64,000 nt of DNA from positions 13,560 to 77,559 of the forward strand of contig CAYNVY010000001.1 of assembly GCA_964400745.1 (NCBI GenBank). The letters are read 5' to 3'. The notes beneath the pieces are model-generated. The model was not told where the DNA came from, made no database searches, and saw only the letters and a list, made by a program, of their open reading frames with translations. Shown piece by piece: positions 17,075 through 59,529 of the stretch. The first letter of the stretch is position 1; each line of letters begins with the position of its first letter. The position numbers and the translations under genes were made by a program. The stretch comes from an uncultured Enterobacteriaceae bacterium. GTDB taxonomy: Bacteria; Pseudomonadota; Gammaproteobacteria; Burkholderiales; SG8-39.

Positions 17075-18355
17075 ATGACCGTCATTGCAATTGTGGGTCT
17101 GGGTTACGTAGGCTTGCCGCTCGCCGTCGAGTTCGCGAAAAAATATAGAACCATAGGGTACGACCTGTCCGAGGCCAAGATTCAGGCGTATAGGCGCCAC
17201 GTCGATCCGACCGGGGAAATCAGTTCGGAAGAATTGAAGGCGGCGAGGCTGCTGGAACCGACGACGGACGCGGCGGCTTTGAAGGAAGCCGATTTCGTCG
17301 TAATCGCGGTGCCGACGCCGGTCGATGAAGCGCACAACCCGGATTTCGGTCCTCTGGCCGGCGCGAGCGAGACCATAGGCCGGAATCTGAAGCCGGGAGC
17401 GATCGTGGTATTCGAGTCCACCGTCTATCCCGGAGCGACCGAAGAGATCTGCGTCCCCCTGATCGAACGCCATTCCGGCCTGGCATGGAAGAAAGACTTC
17501 TTCGTCGGCTATTCCCCCGAGCGCATCAACCCCGGCGACAAGGAACACACGCTGACGCGGATCGTCAAGGTGGTGTCCGGGGATTTGCCGCAGACGCTCG
17601 AGCGCGTCGCCGAAATATACGGCAGCGTCATTACCGCAGGCGTCCACAAGGCTTCCAGCATCCAGGTGGCCGAGGCGGCGAAGGTTATCGAAAATACGCA
17701 GCGCGACCTGAACATCGCCCTGTTGAACGAGCTCTCGCTCATTTTCCACCGCATGGGACTCGACACCCTGGAGGTATTGCAGGCCGCCGGCACCAAGTGG
17801 AATTTCCTGCCGTTCCGGCCCGGTCTGGTCGGCGGACATTGCATCGGCGTCGACCCGTATTACCTGACGCACAAAGCGGAAAAGATCGGCTATCACCCGC
17901 AGGTGATCCTGGCCGGACGCCGAATCAACGACGGAATGGGAAAGTTCGTCGCCGAGCAGACGGTGAAGAACATGATCCAGAGAGGATTCTCGATCAAGGG
18001 TTCGCACGTCATCGTGCTCGGTCTGACGTTCAAGGAAGATTGCCCCGACCTGCGCAATTCGAAAGTCATCGACGTCATCCGGGAGCTCGAATCCTTCGGT
18101 GTCACTGTTCACGTCCACGACCCGGTAGCCGAAGCGGCGGAGGCCATGCACGAATACGGGGTTCGCCTCATTCCGTGGGAACACCTGCCCAAAGCCAATG
18201 CGATCGTATGCGCGGTCGCCCATCGGGCGTTCAAAGAGCGCAACACGGCGGACTTCGTGGAAGCCCTGTCTCCGGGAGGCTTGTTTGTCGATGTGAAATG
18301 CATGGCGGACGTGGAAGCGCTGCGTGCCGCGGGTATAGGCACATGGCGCCTTTGA
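17075..18355 (+). CDS. tviB: UDP-N-acetyl-D-glucosamine 6-dehydrogenase (TviB/WbpO-type nucleotide-sugar dehydrogenase)
   Basis: [20 protein letters not shown] (NAD fold), ...[11 protein letters not shown]..., ...[12 protein letters not shown]... (catalytic Cys), 426 aa. Directly followed by a TviC/WbpP-like epimerase. Confidence 0.8.
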
Positions 18356-19380
18356 GCCATCGCCATGATTTCGAGCGCGAAATCCGGAGTGCGCCGCAGC
18401 GGTGGCTGGTGACAGGCAGCGCGGGCTTCATCGGATCGCACCTGGTGGAGGCTCTGTTGCGGCTCCATCAGGCGGTGGTGAGCCTGGACAATTTTGCCAC
18501 GGGCCATCGGGCCAACCTGGAAGAAGTGAGGGCCTTGGTCGGAGAAGATGCCTGGGCCAGACACCGCTTCATCGAAGGCGATATAACCGATTCCGGGACC
18601 TGTAGAGACGTCTGTGCAGGAATAGACATCGTCCTGCACGAGGCGGCGCTGGGTTCCGTGCCAAGATCCATCGCGCAGCCCTTGGCGACTCACGCCGCCA
18701 ATGCCACCGGATTTCTCAATATGCTGGATGCGGCGCGACAGGCAGGCGTCAAGCGCTTCGTTTATGCCGCATCGAGTTCCACCTACGGTGACCATGCCGC
18801 GCTACCCAAGCGCGAAGACATCATCGGCAAGCCGCTCTCGCCCTATGCCGTCACCAAGTATCTGAACGAGCTTTACGCCGATGTGTATGGCCGATGCTAC
18901 GCCATGCAAACCATCGGCCTGCGCTATTTCAACGTGTTCGGAGCGCGCCAGGATCCGCTAGGCGCCTATGCGGCGGTGATCCCGCGTTGGGTGAGCCGGA
19001 TGCTCGAAGGGCAGTCTTGCGTCATCAACGGCGATGGCGAGACTTCCCGGGATTTCTGCTACATCGCCAACGTGGTGCAGGCCAATCTGCTGGCGGCAGT
19101 TGCCGCCGATCCGGCCGCGGTGAACCAAGTCTACAACGTCGCATTCGGCGAGGCCACGACGCTCAACACCCTGCACGGCCTACTAGTCGCGAGCCTGACC
19201 GCGCGCAGGCCGGAGTTGTCGGTCGCGCCGGCCGTGTATGCCGATTTCCGCGCCGGCGACGTGCGCCACTCACTCGCCGACATCGACAAGGCCAGGGGAT
19301 TGCTCGGCTATTCACCGACGCACAGCGTCCGTGCCGGGCTGCTCGAAGCGATCGACTGGTATGTAAGCAGCGTGGCTTAG
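18343..19380 (+). CDS. tviC: UDP-N-acetylglucosaminuronate / UDP-GlcNAc 4-epimerase (TviC/WbpP-type SDR)
   Basis: In-frame ATG 18343 gives [39 protein letters not shown], and the catalytic YxxxK is present ([11 protein letters not shown]). The upstream part of ORF 17485..19380 overlaps tviB and is Arg-rich shadow. 13-nt overlap with tviB. Confidence 0.8.
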
Positions 19381-31459: not shown

Positions 31460-31876
31460 GCAGCCCCCTGTATCTACAGCATCGACGTTGAAGTATAAGG
31501 TAAAGAATATCATATAACATAATGATTGTCCACATTAAAAATACTTAATGCTTTACCGACATTGAGCTATTGAGAATCGATGTCGATATGTTACGATTCT
31601 AGAGGTGATGCTCTTGGTCGTATCGCCGGTCCACAGAACTTGCCCGGTTTGGTACGGCCCGGTACGATTCAGGCGCGAACATAGTTTAATTGTGCAAAGA
31701 ACCGTTTCAGAGTTGCAGAATTGGCCACTGACATTGGCGAGCTTTTTGGGGAGCATTTTGTAATGGGCTCCAGGTCTGCGCCGGGGTTGCCGAACCGTCG
31801 GGTTGGCGCTGCTGCAAGAACCGCAATATCTCGTTTAATGCAATGGCCACAGGTCATTGAGTATTCCGGAGGTGGT

Positions 31877-34800
31877 ATGGAACATATTTCGACTGCTGAT
31901 GGCTTACTGGGCAACATTCGCATTTTTTCAACGCGGGTGAGGCCATTGTCGTCGTTGGCGGCGGCGCTGCTTGCCGTCGCAATCATCACCGTCTCCGGAT
32001 GCGGCGGCGGGGGGAGCAACGAGTTGGTGACTACGGGGGCTGCGGGTGCGGGAGCCGCGAGTTCGGGAGTCGTCCTGGAACTGAACGGTACTGCGGCCAC
32101 CGGACAGCCGATGGCGAATGCATTGCTGAGCGCCAGTTGCAGTGTCGGCAGCGGTTCAACCACTACCGCGGCGGATGGCTCGTGGCGCCTGTCCATTGCG
32201 GGTGCCGTCGCCCCTTGCGTTATCCAAGTTACCAGCGGCAGTATTACGCTGCATTCTTATGCCGCGGCAGCCGGCGTCGTCAATGTCACCCCGCTGACGG
32301 AGGAAATCCTGCGGTTGGCACTGTCGGGAACGGGCACGACCCCTGCGACGCTCTTTGCCAGCCCGGCTGCCGTGCCGCTCAGCCCGGCGCAATTGCAGGC
32401 GGCTGAGGCATCGGTGAAAGCGAAGCTGGTTAGTTTGGGTGTCGACACGGCCGCGATTGGCGGCAGCCTGCTGACGCAGCCCTTTGCAGCCGATCATACC
32501 GGGATAGACGGCGTTCTTGACCTTGTCGGCGCGACTTTCGTGGCAAAGTACAAACTGACCTTCGCCTCGAACGGCGCGGGCTCCGTGACGACCAGCCCCG
32601 GCGGCATCGCCAATTGCGCCGGCGCTACCTGCACCGCGACCTTCGACCCTGGCACCACCGTAACCCTCACCGCAGCTCCGACGTCAGGGAATGCAGTTTC
32701 GGGTTGGGGTGGCGCCTGCGCGAGTGCTGGCACCAGTGCGCCGACGTGCACTGTGACCATGTCCTCCGATCAGACCGCAAACGTGGCCTTCAGCGGCATT
32801 GCTCCGCCGACCTACACGCTGACATTTACCGCGAGCGGCCCAGGTACGGTGACATCCACTCCAAGCGGCGTCTCCTGCGTAGGGGCTAGCTGCAGCGCAT
32901 CCTTTACTGCGGGTACTGTCGTAACTCTGACGCCAAGCCCGGCTACGAATCCTAAGGTCTGGTCCGGCGCCTGCGCGTCCGCAGGCGCCACTTGCACGGT
33001 GACGATGTCCGCAAACCAGACCGCCGGCGCAACCTTTACACCCTTGTACGCTGCGACTCTTAGCGTGACAGGATCGGGTACAGTGACATCCAGTTCGGGA
33101 GGCATCTCCTGCCCAGGCACTTGCAACAGCGGGTCCGTCATACCTGCGGGCACGGTCGTTACCTTGACGGCTACCCCATCCACGGGATTTTTGGTCACAG
33201 GCTGGACCGGTGCCTGCGCGACTTCGGGTACCGTTGGCACCACCGGTACGTGTTCGGTGACCATGAATGCGAGTCAACCGGCCGGTGCAATCTTTACGCG
33301 CGTGCACGCTGCGATATTTAGTGTCGTTGGATCTGGTACGGTGACATCCAGTTCGGGCGGCATCTCCTGCCCGGGTACCTGCAACAGCGGGGCCGTCATA
33401 CCCGTTGGAACGGTCGTCACCTTCACGGCGAATCCCTCCGCCGGATATCTGGTCACTGGCTGGACGGGGGCTTGCGCGAGTTCCGGCACTGTTGGCGCCA
33501 CCGGGACATGTTCGGTGACCATGAATACGGATCAGACGGCGGGCGTCATCTTTACCCAAGCGTTCGCATTGACGGTTACCCTCTCAGGCGGATCAGGCGG
33601 ACTTGGTACGAGTTCCGTGGGATCCGCTTCAACCCCTGCGGGATCCCCGAGCAATATTTCTTGTACGGCGACCAACAATCCCTGCAGCGCATCGTTCCCC
33701 GCCTTAACCAGCGTGACGCTTTCAGCCAACCCCGGTCCGTCGCAGGTTTTTTCTGGCTGGAGCGGCGGTGGTTGCTCCGGCACCGGGACGTGCGTGGTGG
33801 CGGCGAGCGTCGACAGCAGCGTAACCGCGCAGTTCGCGGATGCGCCTGCATCTTATCTCAAGGTTAGCGTGGCCGGCGGAGGCACGGTTACATCAGACGC
33901 CGGCGCGATTCCTGGCACAATCAACTGCACCGCGGCGGTGTCCGGATACACTGCTGGGTGCAGTGCCACATTCAATACCGGAGCCCCGGTCACGCTGACT
34001 GCGGCTCCAACCGCGGGTTACGCCTTTGCCGGATGGCTCAACTCGGCATCGAGCACAAGCACGCAGACGACGTGCACGGGCACCACAAATCCGTGTCTGA
34101 TTGCATCAAAACCCGCGGCAACACAGTATTTGACTGCGATATTCACGCCAACGGCGACCAATCCGCCCCCAGGTCCCATCCAACTCTATACGGATATAAC
34201 CTCCGGCCCGATAGGGTGCGTAGGAGTGCCGACAGCCTGCGGTCTGTATGCCGGCGAAAATGACGACGGCATCTATCTGTCGGTATTCGGCAAGAATTTC
34301 GGCACTACCGGTCTGGGAACGACTACGAAAGTGTATGTAGACAACATCGAGGTGGCGACCTACAAGCCAACCCATGTGACGGCACTTCCGAATATTGGCG
34401 CGTCTAGGGGCAGGGCCGACGTCCAGCAGATCAACACCCAGGTCGGAAAATTCCGGCTATTGACGAATACCGGCCTTGATGGCCAAGCGCTTCCCATCAA
34501 GGTCGTGACCGATGGCAGGGTTGCGGTCGATCCAAACAGCCTTACCTTCACGGTCAATCCGGGAAGGATCTATTTCGTGAATAACCTCAGCGGCGTCGAT
34601 ACGGCGGATACCACGACTGGCGGCACCTTCGCCGCTCCGTTCTTGACCGTCCAGAAAACTTTGGGTTTGAATTTTTCTATAGCAGCTGCTTCCACGGCAG
34701 GCGCTTGGGGACGCGTGCAGGCCGGCGATTTCCTGGTAATGCGTGGTACAGGGACTCCCTATACAAGGCAGGCAGGGGCTGCCTATTTCATGATGACGCT

Positions 34801-35974
34801 AAACAAGTCCGGCTCTGCGCCGGGTGTCGCTCCCCAATGTACTGGCTGCACGGGAACCGGTCCGATCACACTGATGGGTTACCCGGGGGAGGATGTGTTC
34901 ATCAACGGCCTCTACGATGGAACAGCAACGGGAGGCACGATATCCTCTGCAGACACGGCACGAATTCAGGAATTCAAAGGACACTGGATCAATATCGTCG
35001 GCCTTAGAATCGAAGGGGGAAGGAACGACGGGGCCATCGACACTCAGGCCGGGGGCAGCCACTGGAGGGTAGTCAACAACGAACTGACGGCTGCCACGGC
35101 AGTGGGTAATGTCGTCGCCAGAGCCGCCGGGGCCGCGGGACACGGCAATTGCTGTACCGCGGGGATCATGCCCGGGCCAGGTTATTTGATCATCGGCAAC
35201 AATGTCCATGATATTTTCAACGGGCCGGACAACGGGACCAGCAATTTCGAGAACCACGGTGTGTACCTTTTCGGTCTTGGGAAGACCGAGATTGCATACA
35301 ACCAGTTCAGGAAGATTCGCGGCGGCAACGGAATTTCGACGTTTGCGAATGGTACCAACAACGACTTCAATATAGATGACGTCGATATTCATCACAACAT
35401 ATTCCAGGATATCGGCAAGCATGGCATCAACCTGGCCGATGGGACCCGGAACAATATTCGGATTTGGAACAATATTATTTATGACACGGACCGTGCAGGG
35501 ATTCGCTTCAGCACGACTGTGGCGAACAACACTCAGATATTCAACAATACGATCTACAATACCAACCGGATCAATAATGGCGCCACAGCCGCCATCATGA
35601 GCGAAGGGGTTCTTGGGATTTCAGCGATCGATCTTAGAAACAACATAATTCGTCCAGTTACAGGAGCTTACGCAATCATAAACGGAGCGTTTCCTGGGAC
35701 GGCGACAAACAACCTCTGGTTCGGCGGAACCGGAACCAACCCAGCCACGACGTTTTCCACGAGTTCGCTGGAGACTGATCCCAAGTTTGTTTCCACCACC
35801 GCTGGAGTAGAGGATTTCCGTCTACAGGCAACCAGCCCGGCCATCGGCGCGGGAACCAATGCGGCCGCTGTATCCGCAGTCGTCACGAATGACCTTGATG
35901 TCGCCACTACAGCGGTCACGCAGACCACGCGGCCAATTGGGGGTAGTTGGGATATCGGTGCGTACGAGAGGTAA
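31877..35974 (+). CDS. Giant surface lipoprotein: CarboxypepD_reg-like domain + 6 divergent InlB-B-type repeats + IPT/TIG + right-handed parallel beta-helix (PbH1) domain
   Basis: ATG 31877 has a GGAGG SD 4 nt upstream; lipobox ...LLAVAIITVSGC. Six modules of 80-100 aa have the pattern G.G.VTS.P.GI.C...C...(F/V)..GT.VTLTA.P..G..F.GW.G.C......C.VTM.....V.A.F. Then comes IYLSVFGKNFG...TKVYVD (IPT-like), then repeats such as NNIRIWNNIIYDTDRAGIRFS / NNTQIFNNTIYNTN, ending ...WDIGAYER. Confidence 0.85.
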   Translation: MEHISTADGLLGNIRIFSTRVRPLSSLAAALLAVAIITVSGCGGGGSNELVTTGAAGAGAASSGVVLELNGTAATGQPMANALLSASCSVGSGSTTTAADGSWRLSIAGAVAPCVIQVTSGSITLHSYAAAAGVVNVTPLTEEILRLALSGTGTTPATLFASPAAVPLSPAQLQAAEASVKAKLVSLGVDTAAIGGSLLTQPFAADHTGIDGVLDLVGATFVAKYKLTFASNGAGSVTTSPGGIANCAGATCTATFDPGTTVTLTAAPTSGNAVSGWGGACASAGTSAPTCTVTMSSDQTANVAFSGIAPPTYTLTFTASGPGTVTSTPSGVSCVGASCSASFTAGTVVTLTPSPATNPKVWSGACASAGATCTVTMSANQTAGATFTPLYAATLSVTGSGTVTSSSGGISCPGTCNSGSVIPAGTVVTLTATPSTGFLVTGWTGACATSGTVGTTGTCSVTMNASQPAGAIFTRVHAAIFSVVGSGTVTSSSGGISCPGTCNSGAVIPVGTVVTFTANPSAGYLVTGWTGACASSGTVGATGTCSVTMNTDQTAGVIFTQAFALTVTLSGGSGGLGTSSVGSASTPAGSPSNISCTATNNPCSASFPALTSVTLSANPGPSQVFSGWSGGGCSGTGTCVVAASVDSSVTAQFADAPASYLKVSVAGGGTVTSDAGAIPGTINCTAAVSGYTAGCSATFNTGAPVTLTAAPTAGYAFAGWLNSASSTSTQTTCTGTTNPCLIASKPAATQYLTAIFTPTATNPPPGPIQLYTDITSGPIGCVGVPTACGLYAGENDDGIYLSVFGKNFGTTGLGTTTKVYVDNIEVATYKPTHVTALPNIGASRGRADVQQINTQVGKFRLLTNTGLDGQALPIKVVTDGRVAVDPNSLTFTVNPGRIYFVNNLSGVDTADTTTGGTFAAPFLTVQKTLGLNFSIAAASTAGAWGRVQAGDFLVMRGTGTPYTRQAGAAYFMMTLNKSGSAPGVAPQCTGCTGTGPITLMGYPGEDVFINGLYDGTATGGTISSADTARIQEFKGHWINIVGLRIEGGRNDGAIDTQAGGSHWRVVNNELTAATAVGNVVARAAGAAGHGNCCTAGIMPGPGYLIIGNNVHDIFNGPDNGTSNFENHGVYLFGLGKTEIAYNQFRKIRGGNGISTFANGTNNDFNIDDVDIHHNIFQDIGKHGINLADGTRNNIRIWNNIIYDTDRAGIRFSTTVANNTQIFNNTIYNTNRINNGATAAIMSEGVLGISAIDLRNNIIRPVTGAYAIINGAFPGTATNNLWFGGTGTNPATTFSTSSLETDPKFVSTTAGVEDFRLQATSPAIGAGTNAAAVSAVVTNDLDVATTAVTQTTRPIGGSWDIGAYER
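32549..34152 (+). repeat. Array of six divergent InlB-B-like (Cys-pair) modules within the giant lipoprotein gene
   Basis: Modules start at YKLTFAS (32549), YTLTFTA, YAATLSV (33047), HAAIFSV (33305), FALTVTL and YLKVSVA. Each has two Cys pairs and the GT.VTLTA.P..G..(F/V).GW core. Confidence 0.8.
33047..33562 (+). repeat. Tandem 258-nt (86-codon) duplication, modules 3 and 4
   Basis: 33047-33304 versus 33305-33562: 68 of 86 aa are identical by direct alignment, with many synonymous differences at the DNA level. Confidence 0.85.
34175..35974 (+). repeat. Copy 1 of a ~1.8-kb tandem gene-segment duplication (IPT + beta-helix)
   Basis: Collinear with 36277-38031. Long near-identical DNA runs occur, e.g. 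GGGGACGCGTGCAGGCCGGCGATTTCCTGGTAATGCG (34707-) versus GGGGACGCGTACAGGCAGGGGATTTCATGGTAATGCG (36749-). Confidence 0.85.
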
Positions 35975-36174
35975 CCGGAACGCGCGCTCGGTCTACTGCC
36001 CGTCTGGCGATTTTCCGAGTAGTCGATTGAACGGTACGCGCTTGGGTTCATCACTGCAATTGCCTTGATGATCGGCCACGCGCGCGAGTTCTCTGGTCGA
36101 AGACCTTTTTTGCGGCACGCAGGTCGCATGCAAGCTGGTACGCTGCGCACTAGAATGCTTGGCGACCTATCCAT

Positions 36175-38031
36175 ATGACCTTCGCGACTCTGGTTCTGCG
36201 CTGGCTGTTTGTAGCATCTTCGGTGCTCGCTATCTCGGTTTCCCATGCGGCCGACAACACTGCGCCTGATTCAGCATTCCCCATAGTAATTTACACCGAC
36301 ATTGTTTCGGGGCCGAATAGCGGCGGCGAGAACGACAAGGGCATTTATCTGTCGGTGTTCGGCAAGAACCTGGGCAGTTCCGGGCTTGGGACGACAACGA
36401 AGGTTTATATCGGTGATGTCGAGGTGGACAATTACCGTTACCTCAGCGTGGCCAAGGGCAGGCCCGACATCCAGCAAATCTCCGTACAGGTCGGGACTTT
36501 GGGCAATCCGGAAGAGGGTGCGCCGCTGGCGATCAAGGTTGTGGTCGATGGAAGAGTTGCGCATGACCCCAACCGGATCACCTTCACGGTCAATCCGGGA
36601 AAAATATATTTCGTGGACAACGTCCGCGGTGTCGATACGAACGATATCGTATCCGGAGGCAGTTTCGCCGCTCCGTTCAGGACGGTGCAGAAATCGGCAG
36701 GTGCGACCTTGCGTTTTGCAATTCAACCTGCATCCTTATCCGGCGCATGGGGACGCGTACAGGCAGGGGATTTCATGGTAATGCGCGGTACCGGGACACC
36801 CTATACAAGGCAAGGGTGGGGCAACTATTTCCTGATGGCGTTGAACAAGTCCGGCTCTGCGCCGGGCGTCGTTCCCCAGTGTGCTGGCTGCACGGGCACC
36901 GGTCCGATCACGCTCATGGGTTACCCGGGTGAAGATGTGTTCATCAACGGCTTCTACGAATCCGCGAGAAATAGCGGCACAATATCCTCCGCAGACTCGG
37001 CGCGAGTACAGGAATTCAAGGGGCACTGGATCAACGTTGTCGGCCTTCGCATCGAGGGAGGGAACAACGACGGCGCCATCGACACTCAGGCTGGCGGCAG
37101 CCACTGGCGCGTCGTCAATAACGAGCTGACGGCAGCCACTGCGGTGGGCAATGTCGTCGCGAGGGCTGCCGGGGTCGCCGGACGCGGCAACTGCTGTACC
37201 GCGGGGTTCATGCCCGGGCCGGGTCTCTTGATCCTGGGCAACAATATTCACGATGTGTTCAACGGGCCGGACAATGGGACCAGTCATTTCGAGAATCATG
37301 GCGTATATGTTTTCGGCCTGGGCAAGACCGAGATCGCGTACAACCAAATCGTGAAGATCCGTGGTGGAAACGGCGTTCAAACATTTACAAACGGAACCAA
37401 CAACGATTACTTCGTTGATGACATCGATATCCACCACAATATCATCCAGGATGTTGGCAAGCATGGCATCAATCTGGCTAATGGAACCCGCAACAACATC
37501 AGGATCTGGAACAATGTCATTTATAATGCAGATCGCGCGGGCATTCGACTGAGCACAACTGTTGCGAACAACATTCAGATATACAACAACACCATCTACA
37601 ATACCAACCGCATCAACAATGGCGCCACCGCCGCCATAATGAGCGAGGGAATTCTGGGCGCCTCAGCGATCGATTTCAGAAACAATTTGATCTGGCCGGT
37701 CACCGGGGCTTACGCCAGGATAAATGGTGCGTTTCCTGGAACCGCCACGAACAATCTGTGGTTCGGCGGAGCCGGAACCAATCCTGCCACGGCGTTTTCC
37801 GGCAGCTCACTTAGGACCAACCCCCAGTTCGTTTCCACCACTGTGGCGTCCGAGAATTTCCGCCTTCAAAGGACTAGCCCGGCGATCGATGCCGGAACAA
37901 GTGCGGTGTCGGGGTTGGTGACAAACGATTTCGATATCCAAGCGCCGCGCCCGCATGGCCGCGGGATCGACATCGGCGCCCACGAATTCATCCAGGAACC
38001 CCCGAACGTCGGACGTCAATCGATCCAATAA
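36175..38031 (+). CDS. Secreted IPT/TIG + parallel beta-helix protein, tandem paralogue of the C-terminal 600 aa of the preceding lipoprotein
   Basis: Signal peptide MTFATLVLRWLFVASSVLAISVSHA. The rest aligns along its whole length at roughly 80% aa identity by eye with residues encoded at 34175-35974. Confidence 0.85.
   Translation: MTFATLVLRWLFVASSVLAISVSHAADNTAPDSAFPIVIYTDIVSGPNSGGENDKGIYLSVFGKNLGSSGLGTTTKVYIGDVEVDNYRYLSVAKGRPDIQQISVQVGTLGNPEEGAPLAIKVVVDGRVAHDPNRITFTVNPGKIYFVDNVRGVDTNDIVSGGSFAAPFRTVQKSAGATLRFAIQPASLSGAWGRVQAGDFMVMRGTGTPYTRQGWGNYFLMALNKSGSAPGVVPQCAGCTGTGPITLMGYPGEDVFINGFYESARNSGTISSADSARVQEFKGHWINVVGLRIEGGNNDGAIDTQAGGSHWRVVNNELTAATAVGNVVARAAGVAGRGNCCTAGFMPGPGLLILGNNIHDVFNGPDNGTSHFENHGVYVFGLGKTEIAYNQIVKIRGGNGVQTFTNGTNNDYFVDDIDIHHNIIQDVGKHGINLANGTRNNIRIWNNVIYNADRAGIRLSTTVANNIQIYNNTIYNTNRINNGATAAIMSEGILGASAIDFRNNLIWPVTGAYARINGAFPGTATNNLWFGGAGTNPATAFSGSSLRTNPQFVSTTVASENFRLQRTSPAIDAGTSAVSGLVTNDFDIQAPRPHGRGIDIGAHEFIQEPPNVGRQSIQ
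36277..38031 (+). repeat. Copy 2 of the ~1.8-kb tandem duplication
   Basis: See copy 1. Here the segment forms an independent gene with its own signal peptide. Confidence 0.85.
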
Positions 38032-48998: not shown

Positions 48999-50432
48999 GT
49001 GCAAATCCTTGATAAACGTTTAGATATCTGGCTTCCCACCTACGCCCTTGCGGCACCGGCACGTGCGTACCATCGTCTTCGTCGGCGGCAGCAACTGACC
49101 CATATCATGTTCTTGGTATGCGATCATTTCGAGCCTCGGCACGGCGTTGGCAATCCAGACCAGCCGTTCGAGCGGCTTCGGGCGTGGCGGACGGAGTATG
49201 CCCGATTCCAACAACAATGCCGCGACCGTTTTGGAACCAGTCCCTTGCATACCTGGTTCTATCCCCCGCACCATGGCGCCGAGCATCTTTCGAACCTTTC
49301 GGCAATGGCGTTTGAGGGCTTGGGCGAGGTGGAGTTGCACTATCACCACGACAATGACACAGTCGCGACGCTTCGAAATGGATTGAATGCTACTCTCGCC
49401 GAGTACCATCGATTTGGCCATCTCCTTGAGTCGGGCGCGTCCCCAAGCCCGGCGTTTGGGTTTATCCATGGGGATTGGGCTCTGAACAACTCTTTTGGTG
49501 GCAAGTACTGTGGCGTAAACGACGAGTTGACGCTTTTGCAGGAACTCGGCTGCTGGGGTGATTTCACCATGCCCTCAGGAAGGATCTGTCAGACACGCAA
49601 GATCAACTCGATCTATTACGCACGAAGCAATCCGGATAGCGCAAAGGGGCACGATTGGGGCATAGACGCACGCGTCGGCAGAAAGGATCCGGCGGGCCTG
49701 CTCTTGATGCAGGGTCCGCTCGGGATCAATTGGCTGGCCCCCGATCATCCGCGCGTCGAAAACGCCAGCCTGACCTCGGAGAATTGGGGCCGACCCGATC
49801 GCATCCGCAAGTGGATCGACTGCAACGTTCACGTAAAGGGCCGGCCGGAGTGGTTGTTCGTTAAGTTGCACACGCACGGTGCCATAGAGCGCGATTTCGA
49901 CGCCCTGTTCGGGGACAAGGCAATGGAAATGCACCGCGTCCTGAACGAGCAATACAACGACGGCAAGCGCTTTCGCCTTCACTATGTGACCGCCCGCCAA
50001 GCCTACAACATCGCCAAGGCCGCCGAACACGGTAAGAGCGGAGACCCTTCGGACTGGGTCGACTATCTGATCAAGCCGCCGGTCAATGCGTTCTATGCCG
50101 CCGACCGCAGACATGACGTCCGTTTTTGCACCCAATCCCGGCTGACGCTCGAAAATATCGAGGCCGGGGAAGCGGCACGCATACGCACGCGCACGGGCCC
50201 GATTCGGGAAATCCAGGGCCGGGTGACTGCGGTGGATATCGACGACGGTTCGGGTTGTCTGCGCATCGAAACAGCAGCCGCCGGGACCGAGGTATCGGTA
50301 CAGGTGCAAGCCCCGTTTCAGGTATGCGGCATCGCCGGCGGGACCGTGCTGGCGACACCGGACGCTTCGGATACAGGCGCGTTGCGCGTATCGGTGGACC
50401 GGCAGTGCACAGTCACGTATCGCCGTGATTGA
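48999..50432 (+). CDS. Hypothetical protein; His/Asp-rich N-terminal domain possibly of a metal-dependent carbohydrate-esterase-like fold
   Basis: Coding-like composition over 477 codons. Motifs FLVCDHFEP, FYPPHH, ELHYHHDND, FIHGDWAL and KLHTHG. No family recognised. GTG 48999 or ATG 49107. Confidence 0.6.
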   Translation: MQILDKRLDIWLPTYALAAPARAYHRLRRRQQLTHIMFLVCDHFEPRHGVGNPDQPFERLRAWRTEYARFQQQCRDRFGTSPLHTWFYPPHHGAEHLSNLSAMAFEGLGEVELHYHHDNDTVATLRNGLNATLAEYHRFGHLLESGASPSPAFGFIHGDWALNNSFGGKYCGVNDELTLLQELGCWGDFTMPSGRICQTRKINSIYYARSNPDSAKGHDWGIDARVGRKDPAGLLLMQGPLGINWLAPDHPRVENASLTSENWGRPDRIRKWIDCNVHVKGRPEWLFVKLHTHGAIERDFDALFGDKAMEMHRVLNEQYNDGKRFRLHYVTARQAYNIAKAAEHGKSGDPSDWVDYLIKPPVNAFYAADRRHDVRFCTQSRLTLENIEAGEAARIRTRTGPIREIQGRVTAVDIDDGSGCLRIETAAAGTEVSVQVQAPFQVCGIAGGTVLATPDASDTGALRVSVDRQCTVTYRRD

Positions 50433-59513: not shown

Positions 59514-59529
59514 TGGCACGGTTGGTGCT
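59514..59529 (+). promoter_or_regulatory. Sigma-54 (-24/-12) promoter of PEP-CTERM gene B
   Basis: TGGCACGGTTGGTGCT: perfect -24 TGGCAC and a GC in the correct register, about 98 nt upstream of ATG 59627. An AT-rich tract (GATATATATACCTTTATTTTAC) lies immediately upstream. Confidence 0.7.

Follow-up and report, generated by a model that had tools for sequence, protein, structure and literature searches.

We analyzed a gene for a 1365-residue lipoprotein on contig CAYNVY010000001.1 of an uncultured bacterium (assembly GCA_964400745.1), within a stretch of 64,000 nucleotides that we refer to as the window; nucleotide positions are those of the window, and residue numbers are those of the lipoprotein unless stated otherwise. 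As judged from sequence comparisons, the C-terminal head of this protein is a mobile, conserved module of ≈600 amino acids (aa) that is placed at either end of many proteins, and structure prediction gives it a β-sandwich followed by a right-handed parallel β-helix. A secreted paralogue without a stalk is encoded in tandem, and both genes stand among the genes of an exopolysaccharide (EPS) system. We consider the chances about even that the two proteins are an anchored-plus-soluble pair of EPS-processing enzymes.

The head module and its fold

We modeled the head with AlphaFold2 (AF2), using as input its last 604 aa aligned with 39 homologues. The resulting model (predicted local distance difference test score, pLDDT, 87.3; predicted template modeling score, pTM, 0.92) shows a β-sandwich, then about nine three-strand rungs, and then a cap. 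An eight-step ladder of asparagines is invariant (N1067, N1108, N1142, N1174, N1199, N1224, N1256, and N1279). An initial annotation of this DNA had described a parallel β-helix ending in DIGAYE, and the AF2 model, the Foldseek comparisons given below, and the …WDIGAYER terminus bear this out.

The β-sandwich at the start of the module (module residues ≈6–135 in the model) includes a loop insertion between Cys781 and Cys788, and six of its residues are invariant in the module alignment: D773, G777, P778, G793, E794, and Q855. The initial annotation had assigned this part to the IPT/TIG domain. The predicted fold is compatible with that assignment, as are matches of the IPT/TIG model PF01833 at the homologous module start in the distant members P0068–P0070; a direct Pfam match in the window proteins was not found. 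At the other end of the head, the choice-of-anchor Q model NF041518 matches the C terminus of both the lipoprotein (26.6 bits against a cut-off of 25) and the paralogue (37.3 bits). The 55 C-terminal residues shared with NF041518 proteins (…SPAIGAG…RP…DIGAYE) mark the extent of the likeness: the model covers the cap alone and is silent on function, and the window protein has a predicted N-terminal lipid and no C-terminal sorting signal.

A Foldseek comparison of the head, which the initial annotation had put forward as a route to its catalytic family, returned from the PDB generic β-helix carbohydrate enzymes only, and the catalytic family still cannot be named. The best match was a lacto-N-biosidase of glycoside hydrolase family 136 (GH136; E 3.6e-7, template modeling score, TM, 0.38), accompanied by GH28, GH87, polysaccharide lyase families 6 and 31 (PL6 and PL31), AlgE4/AlgG, and tailspikes, with TM values of 0.2–0.4. 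Against BFVD, the matches were phage β-helix and depolymerase-like proteins, up to E 1.5e-11. A phmmer search of PDB sequences with the head gave no match, and the family profile found there a marginal one, 9rx2, a "parallel beta-helix repeat protein" (E 4.4e-4). Our literature search turned up no mention of 9RX2, of "choice-of-anchor Q," or of a β-helix lyase together with an exosortase; DUF5123 was named once, in an unrelated paper.

Both window paralogues also have a CxxC pair (C988-x2-C991; 34838–34849) and a vicinal cysteine pair (C1092–C1093; 35150–35155) in loop insertions. Elsewhere in the family these columns show little conservation or are missing.

Conserved residues and comparison with enzyme families

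Conservation was scored over 78 modules from many phyla, with identities down to ≈30%. Five residues, R1064, H1111, H1127, Y1130, and H1172, are invariant in this set, and K/R1181 (96%; Lys in 68 modules and Arg in 7), N1185 (92%), and R1210 (91%) are nearly so; H1173 is kept in 94%. Position 1182 is occupied by His in 61 of the 78 modules and by Tyr in 13. Every invariant residue is retained in both window copies. We assigned the "xGI" strands to sheet PB1 from the DSSP strands of the model and the position of the Asn ladder. In this register, which is read along the chain rather than from coordinates, Y1130, Q1154, N1185, and R1210 would take the same outward position on successive PB1 rungs, with H1127, N1151, and K1181–H1182 opening those strands. 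Several conserved residues would thus lie on the PB1 sheet and the T3 turns, where pectate-lyase-fold enzymes bind substrate.

The family profile also aligns, marginally (E 0.048), with VexL, placing the segment IHHN…GKHGIN on TLHHN…QR232NPR235. H1182 then falls at Arg232, the catalytic residue of VexL, and N1185 at Arg235, which binds the substrate carboxylate (PMC6003464). The distant member P0068 gives a PL1 Pfam score of 16.1 bits (cut-off 24) over the same rungs, so that two sub-threshold matches appear to agree. Because both PL1-type matches fall below threshold, we do not place the head in PL1; PF00544 matches no window protein, and the Arg of the R-x-P-x-x-R motif that follows the (T/L)HHN rung is replaced by His (61) or Tyr (13).

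Two further families were rejected on their signatures. GH28 polygalacturonase-type hydrolases use a catalytic Asp triad on PB1; residues 1060–1290 of the head family contain no invariant Asp or Glu, and the Foldseek match to GH28 is generic (TM ≈0.3). Mannuronan C5-epimerases share the active-site motif YG(F/I)DPH(D/E), or DPHD, which is absent from the head, and the fold matches to AlgG and AlgE are weak (E 5.6e-3 to 1.4e-2, TM ≈0.25). When the head was scanned alone, the Methanosarcina disaggregatase-related model PF08480 scored 24.3 bits against a cut-off of 22.6 over rungs 5–7. This match covers only 73 of 194 profile positions, occurs in 1 of 40 family members, and falls below the cut-off in the full protein. 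The enzyme-like character that the initial annotation ascribed to the head is reasonable; the invariant His/Tyr/Arg set at PB1/T3 and the EPS setting of ≈25% of family loci speak for it, and the PL1, GH28, and AlgG/AlgE signatures fail.

Distribution and architectures of the family

A search with residues 770–1365 identified 76 proteins that share 29–59% identity over the full 600 aa, and an exhaustive HMMER search yielded 182 clusters (50% identity) with a threshold of E≤1e-30 and 550 with E≤1e-10. Stand-alone proteins of ≈560–660 aa are frequent among these clusters. Elsewhere the module is joined to a very diverse set of partners, including InlB-B, fn3, He_PIG, Big, PKD, dockerin, Laminin_G, and PG_binding domains, and some members have dockerins or lectin-type or chitinase-type accessory domains. 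Of 78 proteins, 40 have the module at their extreme C terminus, and in 28 it immediately follows the signal peptide. It is not spanned as a whole by any Pfam or NCBIfam model; members match Beta_helix, DUF5123, and TIG piecewise, and several homologues are named choice-of-anchor Q proteins in NCBI.

In a scan of one genome per species we found 76 module loci, from Burkholderiales, Xanthomonadales-type bacteria, Steroidobacteraceae, Deinococcales, Chloroflexi, Actinomycetota, Acidobacteriota, Nitrospirota, Myxococcota, Fibrobacteria, and lineages of the candidate phyla radiation. About 10 of these loci hold clusters of several module copies. Three copies lie within ≈10 kb in each of three loci from metagenome-assembled genomes, L048 (Nitrospirota), L059 (Steroidobacteraceae), and L067 (Gammaproteobacteria), which suggests that local amplification of the module is common.

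Two unusual arrangements were observed as well. P0007 (1435 aa; L008/L046, 5345–9652) has two IPT/β-helix modules in one chain, with tblastn matches at L046 5447–7036 and 8033–9646, together with InlB-B repeats by Pfam, and its gene adjoins EPS export genes. P0042 (1070 aa, from a metagenome contig of the Joint Genome Institute, JGI) combines a Wzx-type flippase (residues 15–342+), a hydrophobic segment resembling a signal peptide, and the module (residues 535–1068). From its sequence, P0042 appears to be either a true Wzx–module fusion or the product of merged adjacent genes; either way, it lies inside an EPS locus.

The tandem paralogue and recurring stalked-plus-free pairs

The 618-aa paralogue is 72% identical to the lipoprotein head by BLASTP and 76% by genome search, and the two are the only module copies in the 4.7-Mb, 401-contig genome. 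In a tree of the 78 modules they are sisters with support of 100/99. The nonsynonymous and synonymous divergences of the pair (dN 0.16 and dS 1.16; dN/dS ≈0.14) indicate an old duplication with both copies under purifying selection.

Comparable pairs occur in other loci. In L010, the gene for a 1335-aa protein with an fn3 stalk precedes that for a 618-aa free form, which is 55% identical to the free form of the window; L004 encodes a 950-aa lipoprotein and a 559-aa free module. The tree places the origin of the L010 pair apart from that of the window pair. The pairing of a stalked with a free copy thus recurs independently.

The surrounding EPS locus and X477

The window holds a complete XrtA/PEP-CTERM system (PrsT, an XrtA-EpsI fusion, PrsR, PrsK, a chain-length determinant, a tyrosine kinase, an outer-membrane protein, and an ATPase), as well as Wzx, a Wzy-like gene, glycosyltransferases of families GT4 and GT2, MBOAT and SGNH proteins, deacetylases, and acyltransferases. 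The presence of a TviB-like dehydrogenase and a TviC-like epimerase points to an acetylated, uronic-acid-containing polymer, in which the sugar is probably a hexosaminuronic acid. A mechanically called 631-aa open reading frame (ORF) at 17485–19380 overlaps the dehydrogenase gene, and its match is confined to the last 330 aa.

Inspected gene by gene, ten family loci divided into six EPS loci (the window and those of P0007, P0008, P0009, P0010, and P0042) and four non-EPS loci. Copies in EPS loci are also present in two cultured bacteria, Janthinobacterium sp. CG3 (L026) and Actimicrobium sp. GrIS 1.19 (L035). For a broader survey, the window's own EPS proteins served as tblastn probes against family loci of ≥12 kb. 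At least three classes of EPS markers were found in 14 of 57 family loci, as opposed to none among 300 windows of 21.7 kb taken at random from the same genome (Fisher p ≈1e-12, a value computed over loci that include related, nonindependent genomes).

The closest relatives of the window's module lie nearly all in EPS loci beside X477, a 477-aa His-rich protein. Fifteen module-bearing loci, all of the EPS type, encode X477 orthologues with 52–67% identity, and none of the non-EPS loci does; the orthologues often start within 50–200 bp downstream of the module gene. Shorter, more distant homologues occur without the module. This distribution ties the EPS branch of the family to a putative shared step.

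Lipid anchor, stalk, and upstream region

The gene lies in a listed frame of 31721–35974. Translation from the ATG at 31877 to the stop codon at 35972–35974 yields 1365 aa, and the Shine–Dalgarno sequence GGAGGTGG stands just 5′ of this ATG. The first 42 residues comprise an Arg-containing n-region, a hydrophobic core, and a lipobox, T-V-S-G|C42, followed by a GGGGS Gly/Ser tether. V-S-G-C42 fits the bacterial lipoprotein pattern [LVI][ASTVI][GAS]C, so acylation is predicted, and lipoboxes are present also in the homologues P0008, P0009, P0011, P0018, and P0027. The ORF reading and the VSGC42 motif agree with the initial annotation, which had called a lipoprotein of this length. With Gly at +2, the lipoprotein would probably be directed to the outer membrane by Lol sorting, and its head could face the periplasm just as well as the cell surface. 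The stalk might therefore keep an enzyme at a set distance in the matrix, as the initial annotation had suggested, or lie on the periplasmic side. The initial annotation had also noted the lack of a PEP-CTERM tail, and rightly so: PF07589 does not match the lipoprotein, which ends in DIGAYER with no sorting signal, and does match a true PEP-CTERM gene of the window.

Between the anchor and the head lies a stalk. PF18998 (Flg_new_2, divergent InlB B-repeat) matches five stretches of the protein (E 2.4e-19, 69.5 bits against a cut-off of 23.6). We cut the repeats by eye and aligned them with each other, which gave six modules of 79–105 aa with 34–79% pairwise identity. Each has four cysteines in two pairs, 24 cysteines in total. 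The profile match and the alignment confirm the six Cys-pair InlB-B-type repeats described earlier. Modules 3 and 4 (33047–33562) share 79% identity, versus 34–54% in the remaining pairs, a sign that one module was recently duplicated within the protein. Support for the CarboxypepD_reg-like domain that the initial annotation had placed ahead of the stalk is weak: PF13620 scores 15.4 bits (E 0.024) against a cut-off of 32.3, and a single-sequence AF2 model of residues 43–320 (pLDDT 46) is unreliable and uninformative.

As the initial annotation had noted, the gene is divergent from a small outer-membrane protein gene, here recognized as an OmpA-type barrel, across an AT-rich region. This spacer has a G+C content of 48% (0.43 over its first 147 bp) versus 59% for the whole window. 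In a gene-by-gene look at L004, L008, L009, and L010, no OmpA-type barrel gene stood beside the homologues, and because of this absence from related loci we rejected the barrel as a functional partner. Matches to σ70-like promoters and terminators in a scan of the locus were no commoner than in shuffled sequences. About 47 bp upstream of the paralogue ATG there is a GG-N10-GC element, CGGCACGCAGGTCGCA (36113–36128, plus strand), with two mismatches to the σ54 consensus; a search with this consensus found no comparable site ahead of the lipoprotein gene. Better σ54-like sites, with one mismatch each, lie ahead of the PEP-CTERM genes at 59514 and 60813.

Table 1. Features of the lipoprotein gene and related genes of the window
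Feature	Position	Strand	Basis or remark
TviB-like UDP-sugar 6-dehydrogenase	17075..18355	+	followed by TviC-like UDP-GlcNAcA 4-epimerase, within 17075-19380
OmpA-type 8-strand outer-membrane barrel, 244 aa	30779..31513	-	Pfam OmpA_membrane, E 2.4e-17
Divergent intergenic spacer, 363 bp	31514..31876		AT-richer; holds Shine–Dalgarno sequence GGAGGTGG
Signal peptide and lipobox, residues 1-42	31877..32002	+	TVSG|C42, Gly at +2; read from translation
Gly-rich tether and N-terminal region, residues 43-223	32003..32545	+	possibly a CarboxypepD_reg-like sandwich, then helices; sub-threshold Pfam
Six divergent InlB-B-type repeats (stalk), residues 224-762	32546..34162	+	PF18998; six-module alignment
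IPT/TIG-like β-sandwich, residues 767-900	34175..34576	+	AF2 strands at module residues 7-132; opens the module
Right-handed parallel β-helix, about nine rungs, residues 901-1310	34577..35806	+	AF2, Foldseek, conservation
Choice-of-anchor-Q C-terminal cap, residues 1311-1364	35807..35974	+	NCBIfam NF041518; ends DIGAYER and stop
Paralogue, 618 aa, Sec signal peptide (…SHA|A) and IPT/β-helix/choice-of-anchor-Q module, no stalk or lipobox	36175..38031	+	BLASTP, NF041518
X477, 477-aa His-rich protein	48999..50432	+	no Pfam, NCBIfam, or PDB match

Discussion

In the mechanism that we propose, the lipoprotein would be tethered to the outer membrane, where a disulfide-stapled stalk of six InlB-B repeats would carry the ≈600-aa head. 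The PB1 groove of the head would bind the acidic, O-acetylated EPS of the surrounding XrtA/PEP-CTERM Wzx/Wzy locus, and the head would cleave or otherwise process the polymer by metal-independent His/Tyr/Lys/Arg chemistry, such as β-elimination at uronic-acid residues. The secreted, stalk-less paralogue would do the same job in solution, and the two copies together would trim, size, or release the polymer. β-Elimination seems the most plausible chemistry because the conserved set is rich in His, Tyr, Lys, and Arg and poor in acids, the expected substrate contains uronic acid, and a faint resemblance to PL1 and VexL exists; as the specific reaction, we offer metal-independent β-elimination with considerable doubt. 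In its widest form, the proposal is that the head represents a new polysaccharide-active enzyme family with a His/Tyr/Lys/Arg active site devoid of metal-binding acids, that one of its branches together with X477 provides a dedicated processing step of widespread Wzx/Wzy (often XrtA-linked) acidic EPS systems, and that a repeatedly evolved anchored-plus-soluble pair controls the length or release of the polymer. Taken whole, this is a tentative reading and a rather doubtful one. What the analysis shows is the architecture, the fold, the conservation of the family, the paralogy with its purifying selection, and the enrichment in EPS loci; catalysis, substrate, type of reaction, and location at the periplasmic or the outer face are inferences.

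Several observations weigh against such a role. Neither Pfam, NCBIfam, and PDB sequence searches nor Foldseek, with its TM values of 0.2–0.4, assigns the head to a known catalytic family. Within the rungs (residues 1060–1290) there is no invariant Asp or Glu. The 78 modules differ at the position of the PL1 base (61 with His, 13 with Tyr), and at Gln1154, conserved in 87% of the family, the lipoprotein itself has Ser. The apparent clustering of conserved residues in one groove comes from the DSSP rung register rather than from three-dimensional mapping. Approximately three quarters of family loci lack nearby EPS genes. Finally, searches of 22 additional species of the genus, of another 18 relatives, and of 400 genomes sampled from the class did not find the module; given its absence from these 40 relatives and 400 class genomes, the module is not a core part of the XrtA system and counts among the variable, glycan-specific components of the locus.

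The same features could describe a noncatalytic, polysaccharide-binding matrix protein. Its groove would accommodate either the EPS or a partner glycan, with the anchored copy tethering the polymer and the free copy cross-linking it. CdrA, a β-helix adhesin that uses Psl in Pseudomonas, provides an analogy. A binder would explain why no catalytic family is assignable and no acid is invariant in the rungs; the β-helix adhesin PfbA appears in the Foldseek list (rank 36), choice-of-anchor domains mark surface proteins, and a long repeat stalk and many Ig-like fusion partners are typical of adhesins. However, five invariant His/Tyr/Arg residues at ≈30% identity across phyla are more than binders usually keep, a conserved motif stands at the position of the PL1 catalytic region, and the stand-alone form, secreted in a periplasm-type manner, is common in the family. 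We regard binding alone as rather improbable.

If the head is an enzyme, its target need not be the polymer of its own locus. A glycanase directed at foreign polymers, be they the matrices of competitors, plant or fungal polysaccharides, or nutrients, would make the place in an EPS locus incidental. This would suit the ≈75% of family loci without EPS genes (P0013, P0015, P0021, and P0032 among them), the dockerins or chitinase-type accessory domains of some members, and a patchy distribution that looks like horizontal transfer, yet it sits poorly with the closest relatives of the window's module, nearly all of which are in EPS loci next to X477, and with P0042, fused to or contiguous with a Wzx flippase; we consider it unlikely. 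Very unlikely, in our view, is a modifier that acts at the level of the polymer, for example an AlgG/AlgE-like C5-epimerase working on uronic acids after polymerization, alongside acetylation by the MBOAT and SGNH proteins. The locus does resemble an alginate modification set in its MBOAT, SGNH, and β-helix proteins, His and Tyr are prominent among the invariant residues, and AlgE4 and AlgG appear in the fold search (E 5.6e-3 to 1.4e-2); these matches nevertheless reach a TM of only ≈0.25, below those to GH136 and PL6, and the YG(F/I)DPH(D/E)/DPHD signature is absent from the sequence.

Among characterized proteins, the nearest parallel to the proposed EPS-processing enzyme is VexL, the Vi-antigen lyase of Achromobacter (PL1; PDB 6FI2), an exported, disulfide-rich, metal-independent enzyme with a basic groove on one sheet (PMC6003464). 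Both are β-helix proteins encoded inside a polysaccharide biosynthesis locus, with an O-acetylated hexosaminuronic-acid polymer as the known or expected product, and the (L/I)HHN motif of both lies one rung ahead of the turn that is catalytic in VexL. The two also differ: the match is marginal (E 0.048), the catalytic Arg232 aligns with His/Tyr1182 of the head family, and VexL has no IPT domain, choice-of-anchor-Q cap, stalk, or lipid anchor and belongs to an ABC-transporter capsule system rather than to a Wzx/Wzy-XrtA system. GH136, GH28, GH87, PL6, PL31, and the phage tailspike depolymerases, which are the best Foldseek matches, share the right-handed three-sheet β-helix, but TM values of 0.2–0.48, identities of 8–18%, the lack of a common signature, and the lack of an invariant Asp or Glu in the rungs set the head family apart. 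AlgL, PslG, BcsZ, PelA, and ExoK are glycanases encoded with biosynthesis genes that size or release the polymer. The logic of a trimming enzyme encoded in the locus would be the same, whereas these enzymes have other folds, belong to other families, and are not known to have an InlB-B stalk or an anchored-plus-free duplicate.

In many bacteria from the environment and from wastewater, XrtA/PEP-CTERM slime loci drive the formation of flocs and biofilms, and to our knowledge little has been established about how the polymers of these loci are sized, modified, and released. The head family, a few hundred clusters spread over many phyla, is uncharacterized and lies within a familiar kind of system. 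Should the head only bind polysaccharide, it would be one more stalked surface protein, of modest importance. Should it be an enzyme, a new family of glycanases or lyases would come to light, along with a tool to dissect or disperse such matrices. The recurring anchored-plus-free pairs and the conserved X477 provide concrete, testable handles.

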